64,000 bases of DNA from a virus (lineage: Duplodnaviria; Caudoviricetes), in IMG/VR virus record IMGVR_UViG_3300033121_000719, positions 68,784-132,783 of that record; one strand, given 5' to 3'. Shown in pieces: positions 40,137 through 55,953 of this stretch. Position numbers and translations under genes: made by a program. Numbering within the stretch: position 1 is the first letter of the stretch; every line of letters begins with the position of its first letter. The notes under the pieces were generated by a model. It ran no database searches and was not told the DNA's origin. It saw nothing but the letters and a program-made list of their open reading frames with translations.

Positions 40137-41612
40137 TTATAGAACAATTTTGCTGTATCGTTCTCCTTCCAGAACCTTGAGCATGGCATCAACTGGATTG
40201 TAACCAATTCCTTCAAGAACACTTTTGAACACACTTACTGAATGTCCACTTGCCAATTGAACACCTCTTGATTCTTTATCAACTTGAAATGAATTTTTTG
40301 AGTCTCTTACATTCCAAAAAATTACATTTGGCATAGTATAACCATGAGCAGAAAATTTGGCTGTCATAGTTTCAAACAGCGTCTTATTCCAGCCACCAGT
40401 ACAACCATCAAACTGCATATCAGAAATGATAATGATTGCTTTTGGCAGGTCGTCATTCGTCAAATTATTACTGATAGCGGTCTGTAAAATAAGATCAAAA
40501 GCCGCTTTTAAGTTTGTGTTTTGCACAATTTCAGGAATACAATTCAGTTTTGACTGTAAAGTATCACCCTTAATTTCAACGAAATGTGGGGTGCTACTAA
40601 AGGTCAAGAACTTGTTATGCCACACTCCTTGATTACGTTCTGCAAAATATACAGCCAACCCAAGAGATGTCATAATTGGTAAGCCACCATGTCCATACAT
40701 TGACCCGCTTGAGTCTGCCATAATAAGGACGCTGTTTTCTCCTTCAATGTAATTTGGTAAAGCCTTCCATTGAGCTTCAGAAACTCTATCAGACTTCCAA
40801 TTTGTATTATAACCACCAGAATAAATTGTTCTCAAGATGTCGTAGGGATAAAGAGTGGTACTGTTGATTTTTACTTCACCCTTTTCAACTTTATTCAAGT
40901 AAGCTACAAACCCGTCAGGATCATGTCGTGAAAATGCTTTACGATATTTTGTCATAGCATTTGAACTAACACCACTATAAACAATACTTCTCCATTCATT
41001 TGAACTCATTTTCCGTTCAAGAACATCAAGCCCTGTACGTAACATGGCTAAAGTTCTGCGATATTCTTTTGGAGTCTGTTTGAAAAAGATTTGAAACTTG
41101 TAAGCAATTTCACGACTTTCACGTGAGGATGTATTATTTGACTTCATCCATTTTCCTAAGAGCGAAAACTTTTCGCCATTCTGCAAATTTTTGATGTCAT
41201 CAACTAACTGATAGCCAACTAACTGCATCATTTCTTTTTCAACTTTCGTTCCAATAAGAACGAACAAATCGTCCCAACGACCATATTCAGGAATAAGTGT
41301 CATGTTTTTGATAACAGCTTCAGGGTTGTTGTTTCCTAAATATTTCAAGATAGTTCTGAAAACTTTTCGTTCACCCAAACCGCCACGAATATCACGCGCA
41401 TAAAATAAACATTTCAGCGCAAGCAAAGGATTTTCAGACCAAGCCATAGAAAAAGCTCTCACAATATCATTTTCAGAACGATCTCTGATTGCACCAGCCT
41501 GACCATAAAAGTCAAGAACATAATTTCCAGTAGTGGACAAAGCATTTGCACCATTTTCTGTCTGAATCATTGTTCCACCACGCTGTAAACCGCTTACAAA
41601 ATTTGCTGACAT
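40137..41612 (-). CDS. DUF2828-family TROVE-like/VWA protein (Ro60-related architecture)
   Basis: TENGA, RDIRGGLGER, YGRWDDL, KW, LYPYD, QWKAL, VWA MIDAS DSSGSM, NTN, ISDMQFD, FWNV. Confidence 0.85.
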   Translation of the reverse strand: MSANFVSGLQRGGTMIQTENGANALSTTGNYVLDFYGQAGAIRDRSENDIVRAFSMAWSENPLLALKCLFYARDIRGGLGERKVFRTILKYLGNNNPEAVIKNMTLIPEYGRWDDLFVLIGTKVEKEMMQLVGYQLVDDIKNLQNGEKFSLLGKWMKSNNTSSRESREIAYKFQIFFKQTPKEYRRTLAMLRTGLDVLERKMSSNEWRSIVYSGVSSNAMTKYRKAFSRHDPDGFVAYLNKVEKGEVKINSTTLYPYDILRTIYSGGYNTNWKSDRVSEAQWKALPNYIEGENSVLIMADSSGSMYGHGGLPIMTSLGLAVYFAERNQGVWHNKFLTFSSTPHFVEIKGDTLQSKLNCIPEIVQNTNLKAAFDLILQTAISNNLTNDDLPKAIIIISDMQFDGCTGGWNKTLFETMTAKFSAHGYTMPNVIFWNVRDSKNSFQVDKESRGVQLASGHSVSVFKSVLEGIGYNPVDAMLKVLEGERYSKIVL

Positions 41613-41709: not shown

Positions 41710-41770
41710 AAGACTCTTTTATTTATTTTTTTAGCATAAAAAATTTGGTTTGTATCGCTGTAAGAGTCTT
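41710..41770 (-). ncRNA. ACAGCAA-handle hairpin RNA A (apical loop AU-GCU-AA)
   Basis: AAGACTCTT/AAGAGTCTT stem, ACAGCGA, apical TTTTT-ATGCTAA-AAAAA. Confidence 0.65.
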
Positions 41771-41798
41771 ACTTTAATGGAGAATGAAAATAATAAAA

Positions 41799-41859
41799 TC
41801 AGACACATAAACTTTAGAATTTAGCAGATTCTTGTTTTTGTATTGCTGTAAGTGTCTGA
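41799..41859 (-). ncRNA. ACAGCAA-handle hairpin RNA B (Ser GCU anticodon-loop mimic)
   Basis: TCAGACAC/GTGTCTGA stem, ACAGCAA, apical AGAAT-CTGCTAA-ATTCT. Confidence 0.7.
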
Positions 41860-41886
41860 AACAATGCAAGGTCTCCTGTGACCAAG

Positions 41887-41959
41887 TACCCCTTGTAGGC
41901 TACGATCCCACGTATCCAAGCTGAGGGCTTAGTGTCCTAGTCCACTAGACGAAAGGGGT
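41887..41959 (-). tRNA. tRNA-Glu(CUC), atypical loops
   Basis: Acceptor ACCCCTT/AAGGGGT; CTAAG-CCCTCAG-CTTGG; T-loop ATCGTAG. Confidence 0.7.
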
Positions 41960-41975
41960 ATTTTTATAATAAAAC

Positions 41976-42034
41976 AAGATGCCGTCAACTGTTTATCTTA
42001 AAAGGATAAGGTTTTGGATTGCTGTTAGCATCTT
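41976..42034 (-). ncRNA. ACAGCAA-handle hairpin RNA C (Lys UUU anticodon-loop mimic)
   Basis: AAGATGCT/GGCATCTT stem, ACAGCAA, apical TTATC-CTTTTAA-GATAA. Confidence 0.7.
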
Positions 42035-42037
42035 TAG

Positions 42038-42110
42038 TGAGAGAGGTTGGACTCGAACCAACGACCACGATCATGTCAAGATAAGAGTTTTGTATTGCTG
42101 TATGTGTCTT
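42038..42110 (-). ncRNA. ACAGCAA handle fused to a tRNA 3' half (GAC loop, T arm, acceptor 3' strand)
   Basis: AAGACACAT-ACAGCAA...ATC-TTGACAT-GAT...GTTGG-TTCGAGT-CCAAC-CTCTCTC-A; no 5' half. Confidence 0.6.
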
Positions 42111-42113
42111 TAG

Positions 42114-42186
42114 TGGAGGTCAAGGGACTCGAACCCCTAACTAGCCGCTCATAAGACGGATACTCTAACCATTGAGTTACACCTCC
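42114..42186 (-). tRNA. tRNA with UAU anticodon (Ile)
   Basis: GGAGGTG...GACCTCC-A; D arm ACTC-AATGGTTA-GAGT; loop CTTATGA; T arm AGGGG-TTCGAGT-CCCTT. Confidence 0.75.
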
Positions 42187-42202
42187 ATTTTTATACTTTT
42201 AG

Positions 42203-42276
42203 CGCAAGTGACAGGTCACGATCCTGCGACATTCTGCTTAGAAGGCAGACGCTCTATCCAACTGAGCTACACTTGC
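42203..42276 (-). tRNA. tRNA-Arg(UCU)
   Basis: GCAAGTG/CACTTGC; TCTGC-CTTCTAA-GCAGA; T-loop ATCGTGA. Confidence 0.85.
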
Positions 42277-42362
42277 ATTTTGCTTGCATAGATATTAATT
42301 GTTATAGGTCATATAAATTTTAAGATATATGCAAGCTCTTAGGAGAAAAATTATGAATACCT

Positions 42363-42415
42363 AGATACATTTATTTTCTTTTTAAGAGAAGATTTTTTGA
42401 TTGCTGTATGTATCT
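42363..42415 (-). ncRNA. ACAGCAA-handle hairpin RNA D (Leu UAA anticodon-loop mimic)
   Basis: AGATACAT/ATGTATCT stem, ACAGCAA, apical TTCT-CTTAAAA-AGAA. Confidence 0.7.
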
Positions 42416-42419
42416 TTAG

Positions 42420-42549
42420 TAGTCTGAGTGGGACTCGAACCCACACCTTCTTTATGTGAAAAAGAGTTTAAGATTTTTGTATTGCAGTATATATCTAAAA
42501 CTAGATATATTGGTTTCTTGTTTTTATGCTGCCATTACACCATCAGACT
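42420..42549 (-). ncRNA. tRNA-like chimera (CAC loop) with the handle inserted between D arm and anticodon arm
   Basis: Acceptor AGTCTGA/TCAGACT; T arm GTGGG-TTCGAGT-CCCAC; TCTTT-TTCACAT-AAAGA; insert ATATATCTA-GTTT-TAGATATAT-ACTGCAA. Confidence 0.7.
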
Positions 42550-42562
42550 ATTTTATTACAAG

Positions 42563-42687
42563 TAGAGAGTATTGGATTTGAACCAATGACCCAGCGATTT
42601 TTTATAATATTTTTGAATTGCTGTTTGCGTCTGTTAAGACACACTTTTTATTATTGTCGCTTGCTCTGCCAACTGAGCTAACTCTCT
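42563..42687 (-). ncRNA. tRNA-like chimera with the handle replacing the anticodon loop
   Basis: AGAGAGT/ACTCTCT; GCTC-AGTTGGCA-GAGC; stem AGCGA/TCGCT enclosing TGTGTCT-TAAC-AGACGCA-A-ACAGCAA; T arm ATTGG-TTCAAAT-CCAAT. Confidence 0.75.
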
Positions 42688-42698
42688 ATAAAGCAATC

Positions 42699-42758
42699 AA
42701 GATACATTAGATTTTCAAGTCAATAGGTTGAAAAGGTTTGAATTGCTGTATGTATCTT
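42699..42758 (-). ncRNA. ACAGCAA-handle hairpin RNA E
   Basis: AAGATACAT/ATGTATCTT stem, ACAGCAA, apical TTTTCAA-CCTATTGAC-TTGAAAA. Confidence 0.7.
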
Positions 42759-42761
42759 TAG

Positions 42762-42834
42762 TACCCCTTGATAGATTCGGACTACCGTAAGCACCTTGAG
42801 AGGGTGCTGTCCTAGACCACTAGACGAAAGGGGT
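42762..42834 (-). tRNA. tRNA-Glu(CUC)
   Basis: ACCCCTT/AAGGGGT; GCACC-CTCTCAA-GGTGC; T-loop TCCGAAT. Confidence 0.8.
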
Positions 42835-42849
42835 GTTTGTTATTTTTAC

Positions 42850-42912
42850 TAGACACATTTGCTTTTTCGTCAGCCAATTAGATGAAAAATTTTGTATTGC
42901 TGTGTGTGTCTA
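42850..42912 (-). ncRNA. ACAGCAA-handle hairpin RNA F
   Basis: TAGACACA/TGTGTCTA stem, ACAGCAA, apical TTTTTCATC-TAATTGGCT-GACGAAAAA. Confidence 0.65.
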
Positions 42913-42934: not shown

Positions 42935-42962
42935 ATTATACCACTAAAATTTTATTTGTCAA
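42935..42962 (-). promoter_or_regulatory. Promoter driving the tRNA/ncRNA array
   Basis: TTGACA-16-TATAAT; the -10 is ~20 nt upstream of RNA F. Confidence 0.75.
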
Positions 42963-43704: not shown

Positions 43705-44808
43705 CTAACTGGACTTAAAATTATAAATTGGCATTATGCGTTCAACAATCTCAACATCATCAGCAACAGCATCTACAATGCTCTGAAACGGCTTGTAAGC
43801 GTCTGGTGCTTCATCCAATGTGTTTTGACCTACAGATGAAGTATAAATACCTTCCATCTGCGTTTTGAACGTATCTAATGGTATGTTTTGCTTGGCTTTT
43901 GACCTTGACATTAATCTTCCAGCCCCATGAGGTGCAGATGAAAGATTGCTTTTATTGCCCTTTCCAATGCAAAGTAAAGAACCATCTCGCATGTTCATGG
44001 GAATAATGAGGGTTTTTCCAAGTTCAGCAGATACAGCGCCCTTACGCAAAATCATGGTTTCAATATCAATGTAATTATGTACAGTTTCAAAAACCCCTGA
44101 AAATTCATATTTGAAATATTCCATAATCAACTTCGCAATCATCAGACGGTTGCGTTGTGCGTATTGCTGACAAATGTGCATATCATTGATGTAGTTTTCA
44201 AAGTTTGCACCTGACACATAACATAAATCTCTATGGATGCCTTTTCCATCACATTCTTCAACTGCTTTACGTTGATGGTAATTTGCAACTTGTAGTCCAA
44301 GATTTCTTGAACCAGTATGAATGACAAGATAAAACTCATTATTAGAAGATTTATTCACCTCAATAAAATGATTACCACCACCCAAAGAACCAATGGATTT
44401 TTTGAATACATCCATTCCTTTTGATAATGAGTCTTTGCAAGTCAATCCAGACAAATCCATATTATCCAAAACTTTGTTATGGTCTGAGAACCCATGAGGA
44501 ATGTGGTGTCTAATAAAAGTATCCAGTTCAGGCAATCTTTCTTGAATTTCATCTGGAATCTTTGTGACAAACATAGAGCATCCAACATCAACTCCCACTA
44601 AATTAGGGCAAACTTTTTCATCTTTGATTGTCATAACAGTTCCAATGGTGCAACCAGCACCAGCATGACAATCAGCTTGAATTTCAATCTGACTATCCTT
44701 TACAAATTCCTGATTGAGTAAATTCATAACCTGAGATATTGTTTCATTATCAACAATATCAGTATGAATATTTGCGATGTTATACTTTCCTTGTAGTGTT
44801 ATCATCAC
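43705..44808 (-). CDS. rtcB: RtcB-family RNA 2',3'-cyclic phosphate/3'-phosphate ligase
   Basis: DCHAG, GVDVGC, GSLGGGNHF, HTGSR, HNYI, RKGA, PHGAGR, DEAPDAYK. Confidence 0.95.
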   Translation of the reverse strand: MMITLQGKYNIANIHTDIVDNETISQVMNLLNQEFVKDSQIEIQADCHAGAGCTIGTVMTIKDEKVCPNLVGVDVGCSMFVTKIPDEIQERLPELDTFIRHHIPHGFSDHNKVLDNMDLSGLTCKDSLSKGMDVFKKSIGSLGGGNHFIEVNKSSNNEFYLVIHTGSRNLGLQVANYHQRKAVEECDGKGIHRDLCYVSGANFENYINDMHICQQYAQRNRLMIAKLIMEYFKYEFSGVFETVHNYIDIETMILRKGAVSAELGKTLIIPMNMRDGSLLCIGKGNKSNLSSAPHGAGRLMSRSKAKQNIPLDTFKTQMEGIYTSSVGQNTLDEAPDAYKPFQSIVDAVADDVEIVERIMPIYNFKSS

Positions 44809-45251
44809 TTCCTCTTTGTCTTTGATAATTTACAAACCATATTTTTTGCGCCATTATGGATTCTATCTTTACTGGCATCAAGAAAAACCCACCACTTGTT
44901 TTCATAGACAATAATATTATGCAGGTCTATATTGGGATTAATAAGAATCATTCTCTTGTAGAATTTTTCAAAGCTGGTATTTCCTCTGTCCTGATTACAT
45001 TTATTGCAAGACAAAACGATAGGTGATGGTTTGTGTTTCCTTTTATATGTTTGACGTTCATCAAACTTTAAAGGAAAAATATGGTCAACCGTTGCGCCGT
45101 CTGGTTGATTGATTTGTATGCGATTTTCAGGATACATTTTAGTATCTTTACCACACCAAAAACACATACCGTTGACTTTTGCAGAAATAACAATTTTACT
45201 TGCTCTGCCTGTGCCCATGCTAAATCCTCTCTTTTTAAAATTAGAGAACAC
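44805..45251 (-). CDS. HNH endonuclease
   Basis: CFWCG, ATVDHIFP, SCNKCNQDRG. Confidence 0.75.
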   Translation of the reverse strand: MFSNFKKRGFSMGTGRASKIVISAKVNGMCFWCGKDTKMYPENRIQINQPDGATVDHIFPLKFDERQTYKRKHKPSPIVLSCNKCNQDRGNTSFEKFYKRMILINPNIDLHNIIVYENKWWVFLDASKDRIHNGAKNMVCKLSKTKRK

Positions 45252-51436: not shown

Positions 51437-52232
51437 GATATTTGTCTCCTGTTATATAGCATGAAAAAGATAATTTTATTGGGTTAAATATTCCAATATG
51501 GATCAATCCATATTTTTAAAGACCAGTTTTTTCTATTATTTTGCCATTTGGAAGTAGGATAAAATAAAGAAAATACAACCATAGCAATTTGCCATTCATA
51601 AGCTACACTTCCCTTAAATGGTTTACGAATTAAATTTTTAAACATTTTATCCTCCAAACACATGAAAGGTTCATTTCATTATACTAACAATTTGAAATAC
51701 AATAATTTTGCTTTTTTGCTAATGTCTTTGACTTTCACCCATTCAGTAAAGCAGTAATCATAACTGCCTTGAATAGTATATTTTTCACAATCAATTTGAT
51801 ATTTTAAAATGTATTCGTCCATGTTATACCTTTTCTGTTATAGTTAATGAAAAGCTCATTTCATAGGGTAAACTTCTTTTATTTTTTCATGGTCTGTTTT
51901 GACAAAAAATATCATTGAGTTATACCGTCCGTTTTGTGCAGTATGTTCAACCTCTACATTATCATCAAACCTAATCAGAATTTCACCAGCACCATGTTTT
52001 TCATAGTTGAGAGTATTCTCATTACTAATAAACAAGATTCCGTATTCTTCAATATCACCATGAATACTCATGCAATCATTAATAGATAAGTATTTTGGCT
52101 TAAAATCAACGTTCAATACTAGAGTGGTGTCATTGTTTAATAGTTCTGTTATTGAAATAACCCATCCCATATCGTCATTCACCGTTAAGCGATAATTCAT
52201 AACAACCTACATTATTGTCTATAAAAACATAG

Positions 52233-52303
52233 TTCAACATATTGGATTTGAACCAATGACTTCAGGTATATGAGCCTGTCCTCTGCCTCTGAGGTAATGT
52301 TGA
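52233..52303 (-). tRNA. Degenerate tRNA-Met(CAU)-like gene
   Basis: TCAACAT/ATGTTGA; CCTC-AGAGGCA-GAGG; CAGG-CTCATATA-CCTG (8-nt loop); ATTGG-TTCAAAT-CCAAT. Confidence 0.6.
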
Positions 52304-55221: not shown

Positions 55222-55953
55222 CTACAAATTAGTTATTGCTAACCATGATTCATGGTCATCACGAAGTTCATCTGTTATCTTGTCCATCTCAGCGAGAACG
55301 GAATCGCTTGGCATTTTTTCCCAATAGAAAATGATCTTGTCTTGTTTGGTTTCAAATGTAATTTGATTATTTCTAAAGTAACCAAACTCCATGCCCATAC
55401 GATCTGAAAACAAACGAGCAAACTTCTTTGCGGACTCTGTTTTGCTGTAATCGTCTTCGTCTTCCGCGATATTGGCAAAGAGCCATTTATAGGAAAGAGT
55501 AGCAATAGGGACAATAACATCACTCTCTTCCTCAACAATAACGTCATCAGCGTTATCGTCATCATCGTCAAGAGGAATCATTTCGTCCTCAATCTCATCA
55601 TCAGTTTCAAACTCATCATAACCTTTTTTCTTTGCCATTTCAATCATTTCTCCTTTTGTTCTTGTTGCGTCAATTTCTTTTTGTCGTTCTTCTTGAATCT
55701 GCACAAGTTTAGATTCAAGAGTCTCTTTGACAATACGAGCATTTACAAGGTTGCGTTGCAAATTCTCTCCAAATTCAGCAACCCTATAACTGTACTTGTA
55801 ATTTCCATCTTTGTCTGGTTGATAATACTCAACCAACCAAACCATTTCAATTGTCTTGTTATGCAGTATCCGTTCTGGTTTGTTTTTTTCCAAAAACGGA
55901 ACGTCAATCTTGACAATCTGTATCTCATATTTGATAAAAGGATAGTATGACAT
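55222..55953 (-). CDS. Acidic hypothetical protein
   Basis: ORF with RBS; D/E-rich linker. Confidence 0.65.
   Translation of the reverse strand: MSYYPFIKYEIQIVKIDVPFLEKNKPERILHNKTIEMVWLVEYYQPDKDGNYKYSYRVAEFGENLQRNLVNARIVKETLESKLVQIQEERQKEIDATRTKGEMIEMAKKKGYDEFETDDEIEDEMIPLDDDDDNADDVIVEEESDVIVPIATLSYKWLFANIAEDEDDYSKTESAKKFARLFSDRMGMEFGYFRNNQITFETKQDKIIFYWEKMPSDSVLAEMDKITDELRDDHESWLAITNL

Follow-up and report, generated by a model that had tools for sequence, protein, structure and literature searches.

The stretch of viral DNA analyzed here (the window, 64,000 nucleotides [nt]) covers the right half of a phage genome that is complete at 132.8 kb, with direct terminal repeats, a G+C content of about 31%, and nearly all of its genes on the minus strand. 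In minus-strand order, the locus of interest contains a gene for the RNA ligase RtcB, two promoters around a tiny open reading frame (ORF), a 1.2-kb array of small RNAs, a third promoter, and a gene for a DUF2828/DUF7788 protein. Within the array, positions 42420 to 42549 encode a 130-nt tRNA-like RNA in which an extra arm is inserted between the D arm and the anticodon arm. This arm carries a short helix followed by a conserved word, together called the handle. The parts of the RNA are given below in window coordinates; in RNA numbering, position i is window position 42550 minus i.

42420 to 42549, minus strand: the entire handle-tagged tRNA-like RNA, 130 nt (sequence; fold; 100.3 bits with covariance model R1, of which it is a seed member).

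42543 to 42549, minus strand: 5' strand of the acceptor stem, pairing with 42421 to 42427, with the discriminator A at 42420 (seven perfect pairs, all covarying in 18 homologues).

42526 to 42540, minus strand: D arm GUGU/AAUGGCA/GCAU, with U8 and G9 before it and A26 (42525) after it (invariant in 18 of 18 homologues).

42511 to 42524, minus strand: A-rich 5' linker of the insert (unpaired in the minimum free energy [MFE] and centroid folds; length and sequence differ among homologues).

42489 to 42510, minus strand: capped handle hairpin of 9 bp with the loop GUUU (fold; the six core pairs covary in homologues).

42482 to 42488, minus strand: ACUGCAA, a variant of the ACAGCAA word that lies 3' of every handle helix (A62, C63, G65, C66, A67, and A68 invariant in the homologue alignment).

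42466 to 42481, minus strand: 3' linker from the handle word to the anticodon arm (unpaired in the fold; 10 to 18 nt and A/U-rich in homologues).

42449 to 42465, minus strand: anticodon arm of 5 bp with the loop UUCACAU and the anticodon CAC at 42456 to 42458 (fold; 5 of 5 pairs covary).

42428 to 42448, minus strand: variable region AGGU and T arm GUGGG/UUCGAGU/CCCAC (sequence, fold, and homologue alignment).

The original prediction had described a complete cloverleaf with an anticodon arm and an extra arm of about 58 nt after the D arm. The minus-strand sequence is as described, and the insert, measured between position 26 and the anticodon stem, is 59 nt long. Positions 1 to 7 pair with positions 123 to 129 to form the acceptor stem, and the discriminator A is at position 130. 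The D arm (positions 10 to 24) has four pairs, two of them G-U, and a 7-nt loop containing G18 and G19. The insert consists, in order, of a 14-nt A-rich linker, the hairpin (positions 40 to 61), ACUGCAA (positions 62 to 68), and a 16-nt linker, and is followed by the anticodon arm (positions 85 to 101), the 4-nt AGGU variable region, and the T arm (positions 106 to 122). The acceptor stem, handle hairpin, anticodon arm, and T arm were all returned by RNAfold, with an MFE of -30.3 kcal/mol (z = -2.97); none of 200 shuffled sequences was as stable. The nucleotides used for tertiary contacts in tRNA (U8, A14, R15-Y48, G18 G19, G53 U54 U55 C56, A58, and C61) are all present and are invariant or nearly so across the 18 homologues. 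The intact 130-nt RNA was not called as a tRNA by ARAGORN or by the Rfam tRNA model (RF00005), even at E values up to 10. When the 59-nt insert was removed in silico, ARAGORN called a 71-nt tRNA-Val(CAC).

For this analysis, the handle word was taken as a short helix strand starting with AGAY, followed by ACWGCAA, and a handle RNA as one with a 6- to 9-bp helix, ACWGCAA directly 3' of it, and a tRNA-derived cargo past a 10- to 18-nt linker. The RNA at 42420 to 42549 has the 9-bp hairpin, ACUGCAA, and such a cargo at such a distance. The outer pairs of its hairpin, AGAU/AUCU, are those of the open terminal stems of the neighboring standalone RNAs. Thus, the hairpin and ACUGCAA in the insert are the closed (capped) form of the helix and ACAGCAA handle found on eight neighboring RNAs. 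The order of handle, ACAGCAA word, linker, and anticodon-type hairpin is also the same in this RNA and in the standalone RNAs, as originally predicted, and proved to be a conserved feature across DUF2828 loci. The handle word occurs in nine copies in the array (41770 to 42912), all on the minus strand, and eight of them fit the strict pattern (0.53 expected by chance). The rest of the 132.8-kb genome contains one more match, at window position 55456. It falls within a coding sequence by chance and was not taken for a handle RNA.

The nearest DUF2828 proteins were only 54 to 55% identical to that of this phage, no close phage relative was present in the collections searched, and a single-protein search for related loci came back empty. 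A blastn search with the array against cultured phages returned ordinary tRNA similarity only. Since only distant relatives were available, 80 viral loci were gathered by DUF2828 protein alignment. Their upstream regions contained standalone helix and ACAGCAA RNAs with apical hairpins of 5 bp and 7 nt, together with tRNA bodies bearing a capped handle. A loose handle pattern run over viral contigs yielded 118 single matches, mostly due to chance, and was dropped.

Homologues of the RNA itself were collected from viral, metagenome, and genome collections with a DNA pattern in which nothing but the unusual D arm and the handle word was fixed. About 20 distinct RNAs were obtained, and 18 were aligned with MAFFT. 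All 18, and nearly all of the full set, also possessed parts that the pattern had not asked for: besides a capped hairpin and a 10- to 18-nt linker, there were an arm of the anticodon type, a variable region like AGGU, a T arm, and an acceptor stem whose strands pair. Their capped hairpins were unrelated in sequence, and the architecture was found again in distant phages with DUF2828 proteins 44 to 55% identical. In the alignment, 90.2% of the pairing cells could pair, compared with 63.5% in column shuffles and 39 to 50% with slid partners. Changes on both sides were observed in 23 of 30 pairs, including all of the acceptor and anticodon stem pairs and the core of the handle hairpin, and the D stem was invariant. 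The two tests proposed with the original prediction therefore came out in its favor: the arms form in RNAfold, and homologues keep the insert with compensatory changes. One homologue (locus L281, 455 to 572) has an 8-nt anticodon-type loop, and its close relative at locus L235 has a loop of 7 nt.

A covariance model built from the alignment of the 18 homologues (R1) detected, at a score of at least 40 bits, full-length chimeras of 112 to 128 nt in 52 of the 80 DUF2828 loci; no ordinary tRNA exceeded 38 bits. When R1 was run on six cultured-phage loci, only permuted or partial matches were found, and no open-acceptor chimera like that at 42420 to 42549. With a permissive detector of open handles, which also gave many control-strand matches and was used solely as a density ratio, the 2 kb upstream of DUF2828 genes held handles at about 14 times the density of the opposite (control) strand. 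At least one handle was present in this upstream region in 70 of the 80 loci.

A rule emerged from the parsing of 93 distinct chimeras. The handle always leaves the 5' strand of the anticodon stem, after zero to five basal pairs, with three pairs being the commonest. The RNA at 42420 to 42549 is the zero-pair case (26/27 junction), and the second chimera of the array (42563 to 42687), in which the handle lies within the anticodon loop after five basal pairs, is the five-pair case, so that the difference in insertion point noted in the original prediction was confirmed. A full 5-bp stem and 7-nt loop could be rebuilt across the branch in 67 of the 93 chimeras, compared with 11.8 ± 3.1 when the linkers were shuffled, and virtual excision of the insert left an ARAGORN-valid tRNA in 60 of 61 chimeras. 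Thus, selection acts to keep an intact, coaxially stackable anticodon arm beside the handle.

The anticodon itself was less constant. In related phages, one acceptor/handle scaffold bears GCC, GUA, GCU, or UUU, and another bears GAU, GGU, or GGA. Anticodons for Ser, Leu, and Tyr occur on bodies without a long variable arm, which bacterial class II tRNAs have. Chimeras and canonical tRNAs of the same locus shared anticodons in 10 of 57 cases (8.5 ± 2.2 after permutation), indicating neither avoidance nor tracking. The discriminator matched the anticodon in several relatives: G73 with GUC, U73 with GCC or UCC, and C1-G72/A73 with UGG. At one locus (L266, 1672 to 2334), four tandem chimeras have the same anticodon stem and handles that resemble one another, but their acceptor stems and their loops (UUC, UAU, UGG, and UCC) are different. 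Each carries the discriminator or first pair expected for that amino acid, so that in this phage the four resemble a small family of tagged isoacceptors.

Cultured phages contain relatives of this RNA in another arrangement. In a tblastn search, DUF2828 was found in 704 cultured phages, among others in Felixounavirus, in phages of Listeria, Enterococcus, Staphylococcus, Bacillus, Campylobacter, and Vibrio, and in mycobacteriophages. In felixounaviruses, the DUF2828 gene lies directly upstream of the tRNA array, and handle RNAs occupy gaps in the array. One of these, an RNA of 131 nt, folds with an open handle formed by its ends, followed by ACAGCAA, a linker, the anticodon arm, the T arm, and an acceptor stem capped by a 4-nt loop, and it carries the same D arm as the RNA at 42420 to 42549. 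When the latter was rotated at the cap loop, it aligned with the Felixounavirus RNA with a score of 99, compared with 58 without rotation and 44 ± 6 after shuffling, and the rotation at the cap loop was the best of the 130 possible. The two RNAs are therefore circular permutations of one design. The 131-nt permuted RNA is present but unannotated in 246 cultured phage genomes.

Similar observations were made at individual loci. In the felixounavirus Bas63 (MZ501086), the handle RNAs lie at about 82.2 to 82.9 kb. There (locus L376, 20749 to 21023), two "hypothetical protein" genes, bas63_0137 and bas63_0138, lie antisense to handle RNAs, including the 131-nt permuted RNA, and are probably spurious gene calls. 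Unannotated helix and ACAGCAA RNAs occur upstream of DUF2828 in Bacillus phage vB_BcoS-136 (L377, 1886 to 4800), Enterococcus phage TJE2 (L378, 4446 to 4815), and Listeria phage List-36 (L379, 4668 to 4826), and several of the RNAs at these three loci have permuted tRNA-like bodies. In List-36, the 5 kb that follow contain genes for RtcB, another RNA ligase, and a phosphohydrolase.

No Rfam family matched any of the handle RNAs examined at threshold. In mycobacteriophage Wyatt2, an RNA downstream of a "Ro-like" DUF2828 gene gave a subthreshold match to the Rfam family YrlA (36.4 bits, E = 1.5e-6), and the alignment covered the T arm, the capped acceptor, and the D arm. By this match, the handle RNAs count as a distant, uncatalogued relative of YrlA.

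The original prediction had also proposed an evolutionary intermediate between tRNA genes and the minimal handle-anticodon RNAs. The structure and the shared order of modules were confirmed, but the data do not point to a transitional form: the RNA belongs to a stable, selected class present in most DUF2828 loci. The RNA forms are related by circular permutation and module exchange and are neither transitional nor decaying.

The remaining features of the locus, including the DUF2828 gene, are as follows.

41710 to 42912, minus strand: small-RNA array with nine handle copies, four canonical tRNAs, the second chimera (42563 to 42687), and an orphan 3' half.

42935 to 42962, minus strand: sigma-70-type consensus promoter (12 of 12 matches, extended -10) before the array.

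40137 to 41612, minus strand: DUF2828/DUF7788 protein with a predicted Ro60 fold (HEAT-repeat ring and vWA domain), the presumed handle-binding partner (Pfam; AlphaFold; Foldseek).

43705 to 44808, minus strand: RtcB RNA ligase upstream of the array, part of the context and not a constant partner (Pfam PF01139, E = 8e-66).

The DUF2828 gene begins 808 nt downstream of the RNA on the same strand. A search of its sequence profile against Protein Data Bank sequences gave just a weak vWA match, with no Ro60 among the matches and no link to TROVE. The AlphaFold model of the protein (predicted local distance difference test score, 87; predicted template modeling score, 0.86) was then compared with known structures by Foldseek. 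The top 12 matches were all Ro60 proteins and extended over the whole length, with vWA domains coming next. They included Ro60 from Xenopus and human, Rsr from Deinococcus, and the Ro60 of Thermus phage phiLo, with E values of 5e-7 to 8e-5 and template modeling scores of 0.5 to 0.59 (E = 5e-7 for 1yvr and E = 1e-6 for the phiLo protein). The DUF2828 protein is thus predicted to have a Ro60 fold, a link made by fold comparison rather than by sequence. Together with the synteny of handles and DUF2828 genes (their density upstream and their presence in 70 of 80 loci), this fold suggests that the protein and the RNAs form a Ro60/Y-RNA-type pair, and their co-occurrence points to binding of the handle RNAs by the DUF2828 protein. 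Literature searches returned only unrelated plant and animal papers for DUF2828 and genome announcements for "Ro-like".

Several further observations were made around the array. Two near-identical consensus promoters (43132 to 43104 and 42962 to 42935, minus strand) are each followed by the same leader of about 25 nt, and a hydrophobic ORF of about 32 codons (about 43074 to 42978) lies between them. Further copies of this promoter cassette on the source contig were seen as "goes back" joints, and a third, similar promoter (41679 to 41651) precedes the DUF2828 gene. A weak R1 match (42038 to 42186, minus strand; 29.5 bits) spans a tRNA-Ile, the next handle, and the orphan 3' half, which has a GAC loop. 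This handle-led orphan (42038 to 42110) consists of a T arm and the 3' strand of an acceptor stem, with no 5' partner in the window. Elsewhere on the minus strand, ARAGORN called a tRNA gene with a four-base anticodon (cata) at 52232 to 52303, which scored 52 bits with the Rfam tRNA model. A 148-amino-acid ORF (44805 to 45251, minus strand) overlaps the start of the RtcB gene and gave a weak HNH endonuclease match (E = 7e-4) below the Pfam cutoff.

As reported previously for YrlA (RF02553; Chen et al. 2014, PMC4201824), a small RNA whose gene adjoins that of a Ro60-fold protein can combine a protein-binding helix with a tRNA-like domain that has a T arm, a D arm, and an acceptor-like stem, and YrlA is processed and modified like a tRNA (PMC4201824). 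The RNA described here is similar in all of these parts but differs in topology. Its ends form the acceptor stem and its handle is closed by GUUU, whereas in YrlA the arrangement is the reverse; the YrlA-like topology appears in the permuted relatives and not in the RNA at 42420 to 42549. In addition, the YrlA consensus lacks the full 5-bp, 7-nt anticodon arm that this RNA has, the handle here is a helix with ACAGCAA rather than the YrlA stem sequence, and the partner is a DUF2828 protein, which sequence profiles do not tie to TROVE. Consistently, the RNA at 42420 to 42549 gave no match to the Rfam YrlA model (gathering threshold, 69 bits).

The closest known counterparts are the Felixounavirus RNAs beside gp130 of phage Bas63, a DUF2828/DUF7788 protein flanked by handle RNAs. 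They share with the present RNA the protein family, the handle word, the D arm, the anticodon arm, and the T arm, and differ from it by circular permutation. Among the members of the system, only Bas63 gp130 has a phenotype: it counters the Ppl defense system, also when moved alone into phage T7 (PMC11482910). The PhageMaP preprint, in which this was reported, merely guessed that some tRNA genes could be Y RNAs (PMC11482910). Thermus phage phiLo also offers a parallel, in that a phage Ro60-fold protein binds two RNAs, Yrl1 and Yrl2, encoded beside its gene (PMC12135203), a binding that is presumed here. In contrast to the present RNA, Yrl1 and Yrl2 are classical Y RNAs of the stem/internal loop/stem type with a CGAA motif and have neither a tRNA cloverleaf nor an ACAGCAA handle (PMC12135203).

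A different kind of interrupted tRNA is also well known. In Archaea and red algae, tRNA genes with noncanonical introns and permuted tRNA genes use bulge-helix-bulge motifs and a splicing endonuclease. These genes resemble the present family in that a tRNA is interrupted outside the anticodon loop and permuted versions of one family exist, but no bulge-helix-bulge was found here, and the insert is itself a conserved functional module.

We consider it probable that the RNA at 42420 to 42549 is a handle-tagged tRNA mimic that serves as the Y-RNA-like partner of the Ro60-like DUF2828 protein of the phage, and it most likely belongs to a phage RNA-protein system that is widespread and uncatalogued. 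A mimic that does not decode is favored because relatives have capped acceptors, anticodons drift, variable arms are short, the anticodons do not complement those of the canonical tRNAs, and the junctions have no bulge-helix-bulge or conserved structure. The capped acceptor counts against decoding at the level of the family, since such an RNA cannot be charged, yet it keeps the same modules. The array would be transcribed from its own promoter, and RNase P and RNase Z would cut the tRNA-like ends and free the next handle RNA, 3 to 4 nt downstream. The Ro60-like ring would then bind the handle helix and the adjacent single strand, and the particle would hold out a tRNA body with its anticodon arm intact, set at a constant distance from the protein, without use of the RNA in decoding. 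Display of the anticodon arm seems the most economical account of the conserved geometry of handle and arm, the fast turnover of the loop, and the frequent RNA-repair neighbors (here and in List-36). From its anatomy, the particle may act in the phage-host conflict over tRNAs, where it could be a decoy or tether for host factors that read the anticodon loop, such as anticodon nucleases and the enzymes of tRNA modification or charging; alternatively, it could serve as a repair platform.

Several points weigh against this interpretation. Once the insert is taken out in silico, the tRNA that remains is flawless, both for this RNA and for 60 of 61 relatives, and several relatives retain the discriminator expected for their anticodon. 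The phage has no canonical tRNA-Val, and its canonical tRNAs include a Glu(CUC) for the minor codon GAG, which would fit a working tRNA too. Bas63 gp130 protects T7 without a handle RNA, so at least one activity of the protein is independent of the RNAs. The decoy or tether role is deduced from anatomy. The contig of the source sample covers the region. Moreover, the only RNA library with shared words contained no coverage attributable to 42420 to 42549 and no joint across the insert, and its contigs cannot show RNA ends. In this library, a wastewater metatranscriptome, a 166-nt contig is identical to window positions 41996 to 42101 (106 bases comprising a handle RNA and the orphan tRNA 3' half) and then diverges. 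This contig suggests a related phage in another habitat, possibly expressed, and the result counts neither way for the RNA at 42420 to 42549.

In another reading, the RNA would be a working tRNA and its fifth arm a module that can be removed or is guarded by a protein, being spliced out via RtcB or retained while the tRNA decodes GUG. We regard this as unlikely. In its first form, the RNA would be an intron-containing pre-tRNA from which the 59-nt insert is excised and the halves rejoined, for example by RtcB, to give tRNA-Val(CAC), with the handle only recruiting the machinery. The valid tRNAs left by virtual excision and the anticodon stems rebuilt across the insert are what splicing would require, the phage has no other tRNA-Val, and RtcB, which joins the halves when tRNAs are spliced in archaea and animals, is encoded 1.2 kb upstream of the RNA. 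If true, excision and rejoining by RtcB would be protein-dependent tRNA splicing in a bacteriophage. However, both junctions are A-rich and unpaired in the MFE and centroid folds, and neither their length nor their sequence is conserved, so that there is no bulge-helix-bulge or other conserved splice-site structure. The insert matches no Rfam intron family and is far below the size needed for a group I intron. The same handle also occurs on standalone and acceptor-capped RNAs, where splicing yields no product, and RtcB is encoded within 6 kb in just 8 of the 80 related loci. Together with anticodons that drift on fixed scaffolds and class II anticodons on bodies without long variable arms, these results make splicing quite improbable.

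In the second form, the arm is permanent: the RNA would accept valine and read GUG codons, and the Ro60-like protein, docked on the handle, would protect or repair the anticodon loop under attack by host nucleases. A73 and A35-C36 specify valine identity in Escherichia coli, and both are present here along with all of the tertiary nucleotides. Discriminators match in several relatives as described above, the canonical tRNAs of the phage include a Glu(CUC) for a minor G-ending codon, and GUG makes up 10% of the Val codons. However, to judge from known ribosome-tRNA contacts, a branch of 45 to 60 nt on the 5' strand of the anticodon stem or hinge (positions 26 to 30) would clash with the subunit interface near the D stem and anticodon stem. 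The permuted homologues with capped acceptors are unchargeable and yet have the same modules, anticodons are decoupled from scaffolds, and the canonical tRNA sets are not complemented. We therefore consider a decoding role very improbable.

That the RNA is a functionless tRNA-Val gene broken by recombination with a neighboring handle repeat is suggested by the handle-led orphan 3' half and by the repeated handle words of the array, which could recombine, but it can be virtually dismissed, because all arms are perfect, the same architecture occurs in distant phages, every variable helix shows compensatory changes, and the divergence of the homologues argues against recent copies.

Four aspects of the handle-tagged RNA are new: the subclass that has the handle at the 26/27 junction and conserves a distinct D arm; the general finding that the handle leaves the 5' side of an anticodon stem which is complete in other respects; the circular permutation with the Felixounavirus RNA, shown quantitatively; and the evidence for decoupling of anticodon and scaffold. 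For genome annotation, it means that tRNA finders and Rfam miss these genes, and the permuted relatives stand unannotated in hundreds of cultured phages of E. coli, Salmonella, Bacillus, Enterococcus, and Listeria. The antidefense phenotype of Bas63 gp130 makes the question of function directly testable.

Ro60 and Y RNAs are conserved from bacteria to humans. The system described here would be a second, very common phage version of the Ro60 particle, in which the RNA partner can be a true cloverleaf with the handle as a fifth arm. The order of the modules survives permutation and the anticodon loop changes fastest, which points to display of the anticodon loop as the purpose of the particle. 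Such a display would connect the system with the arms race in which tRNAs are cleaved and repaired.
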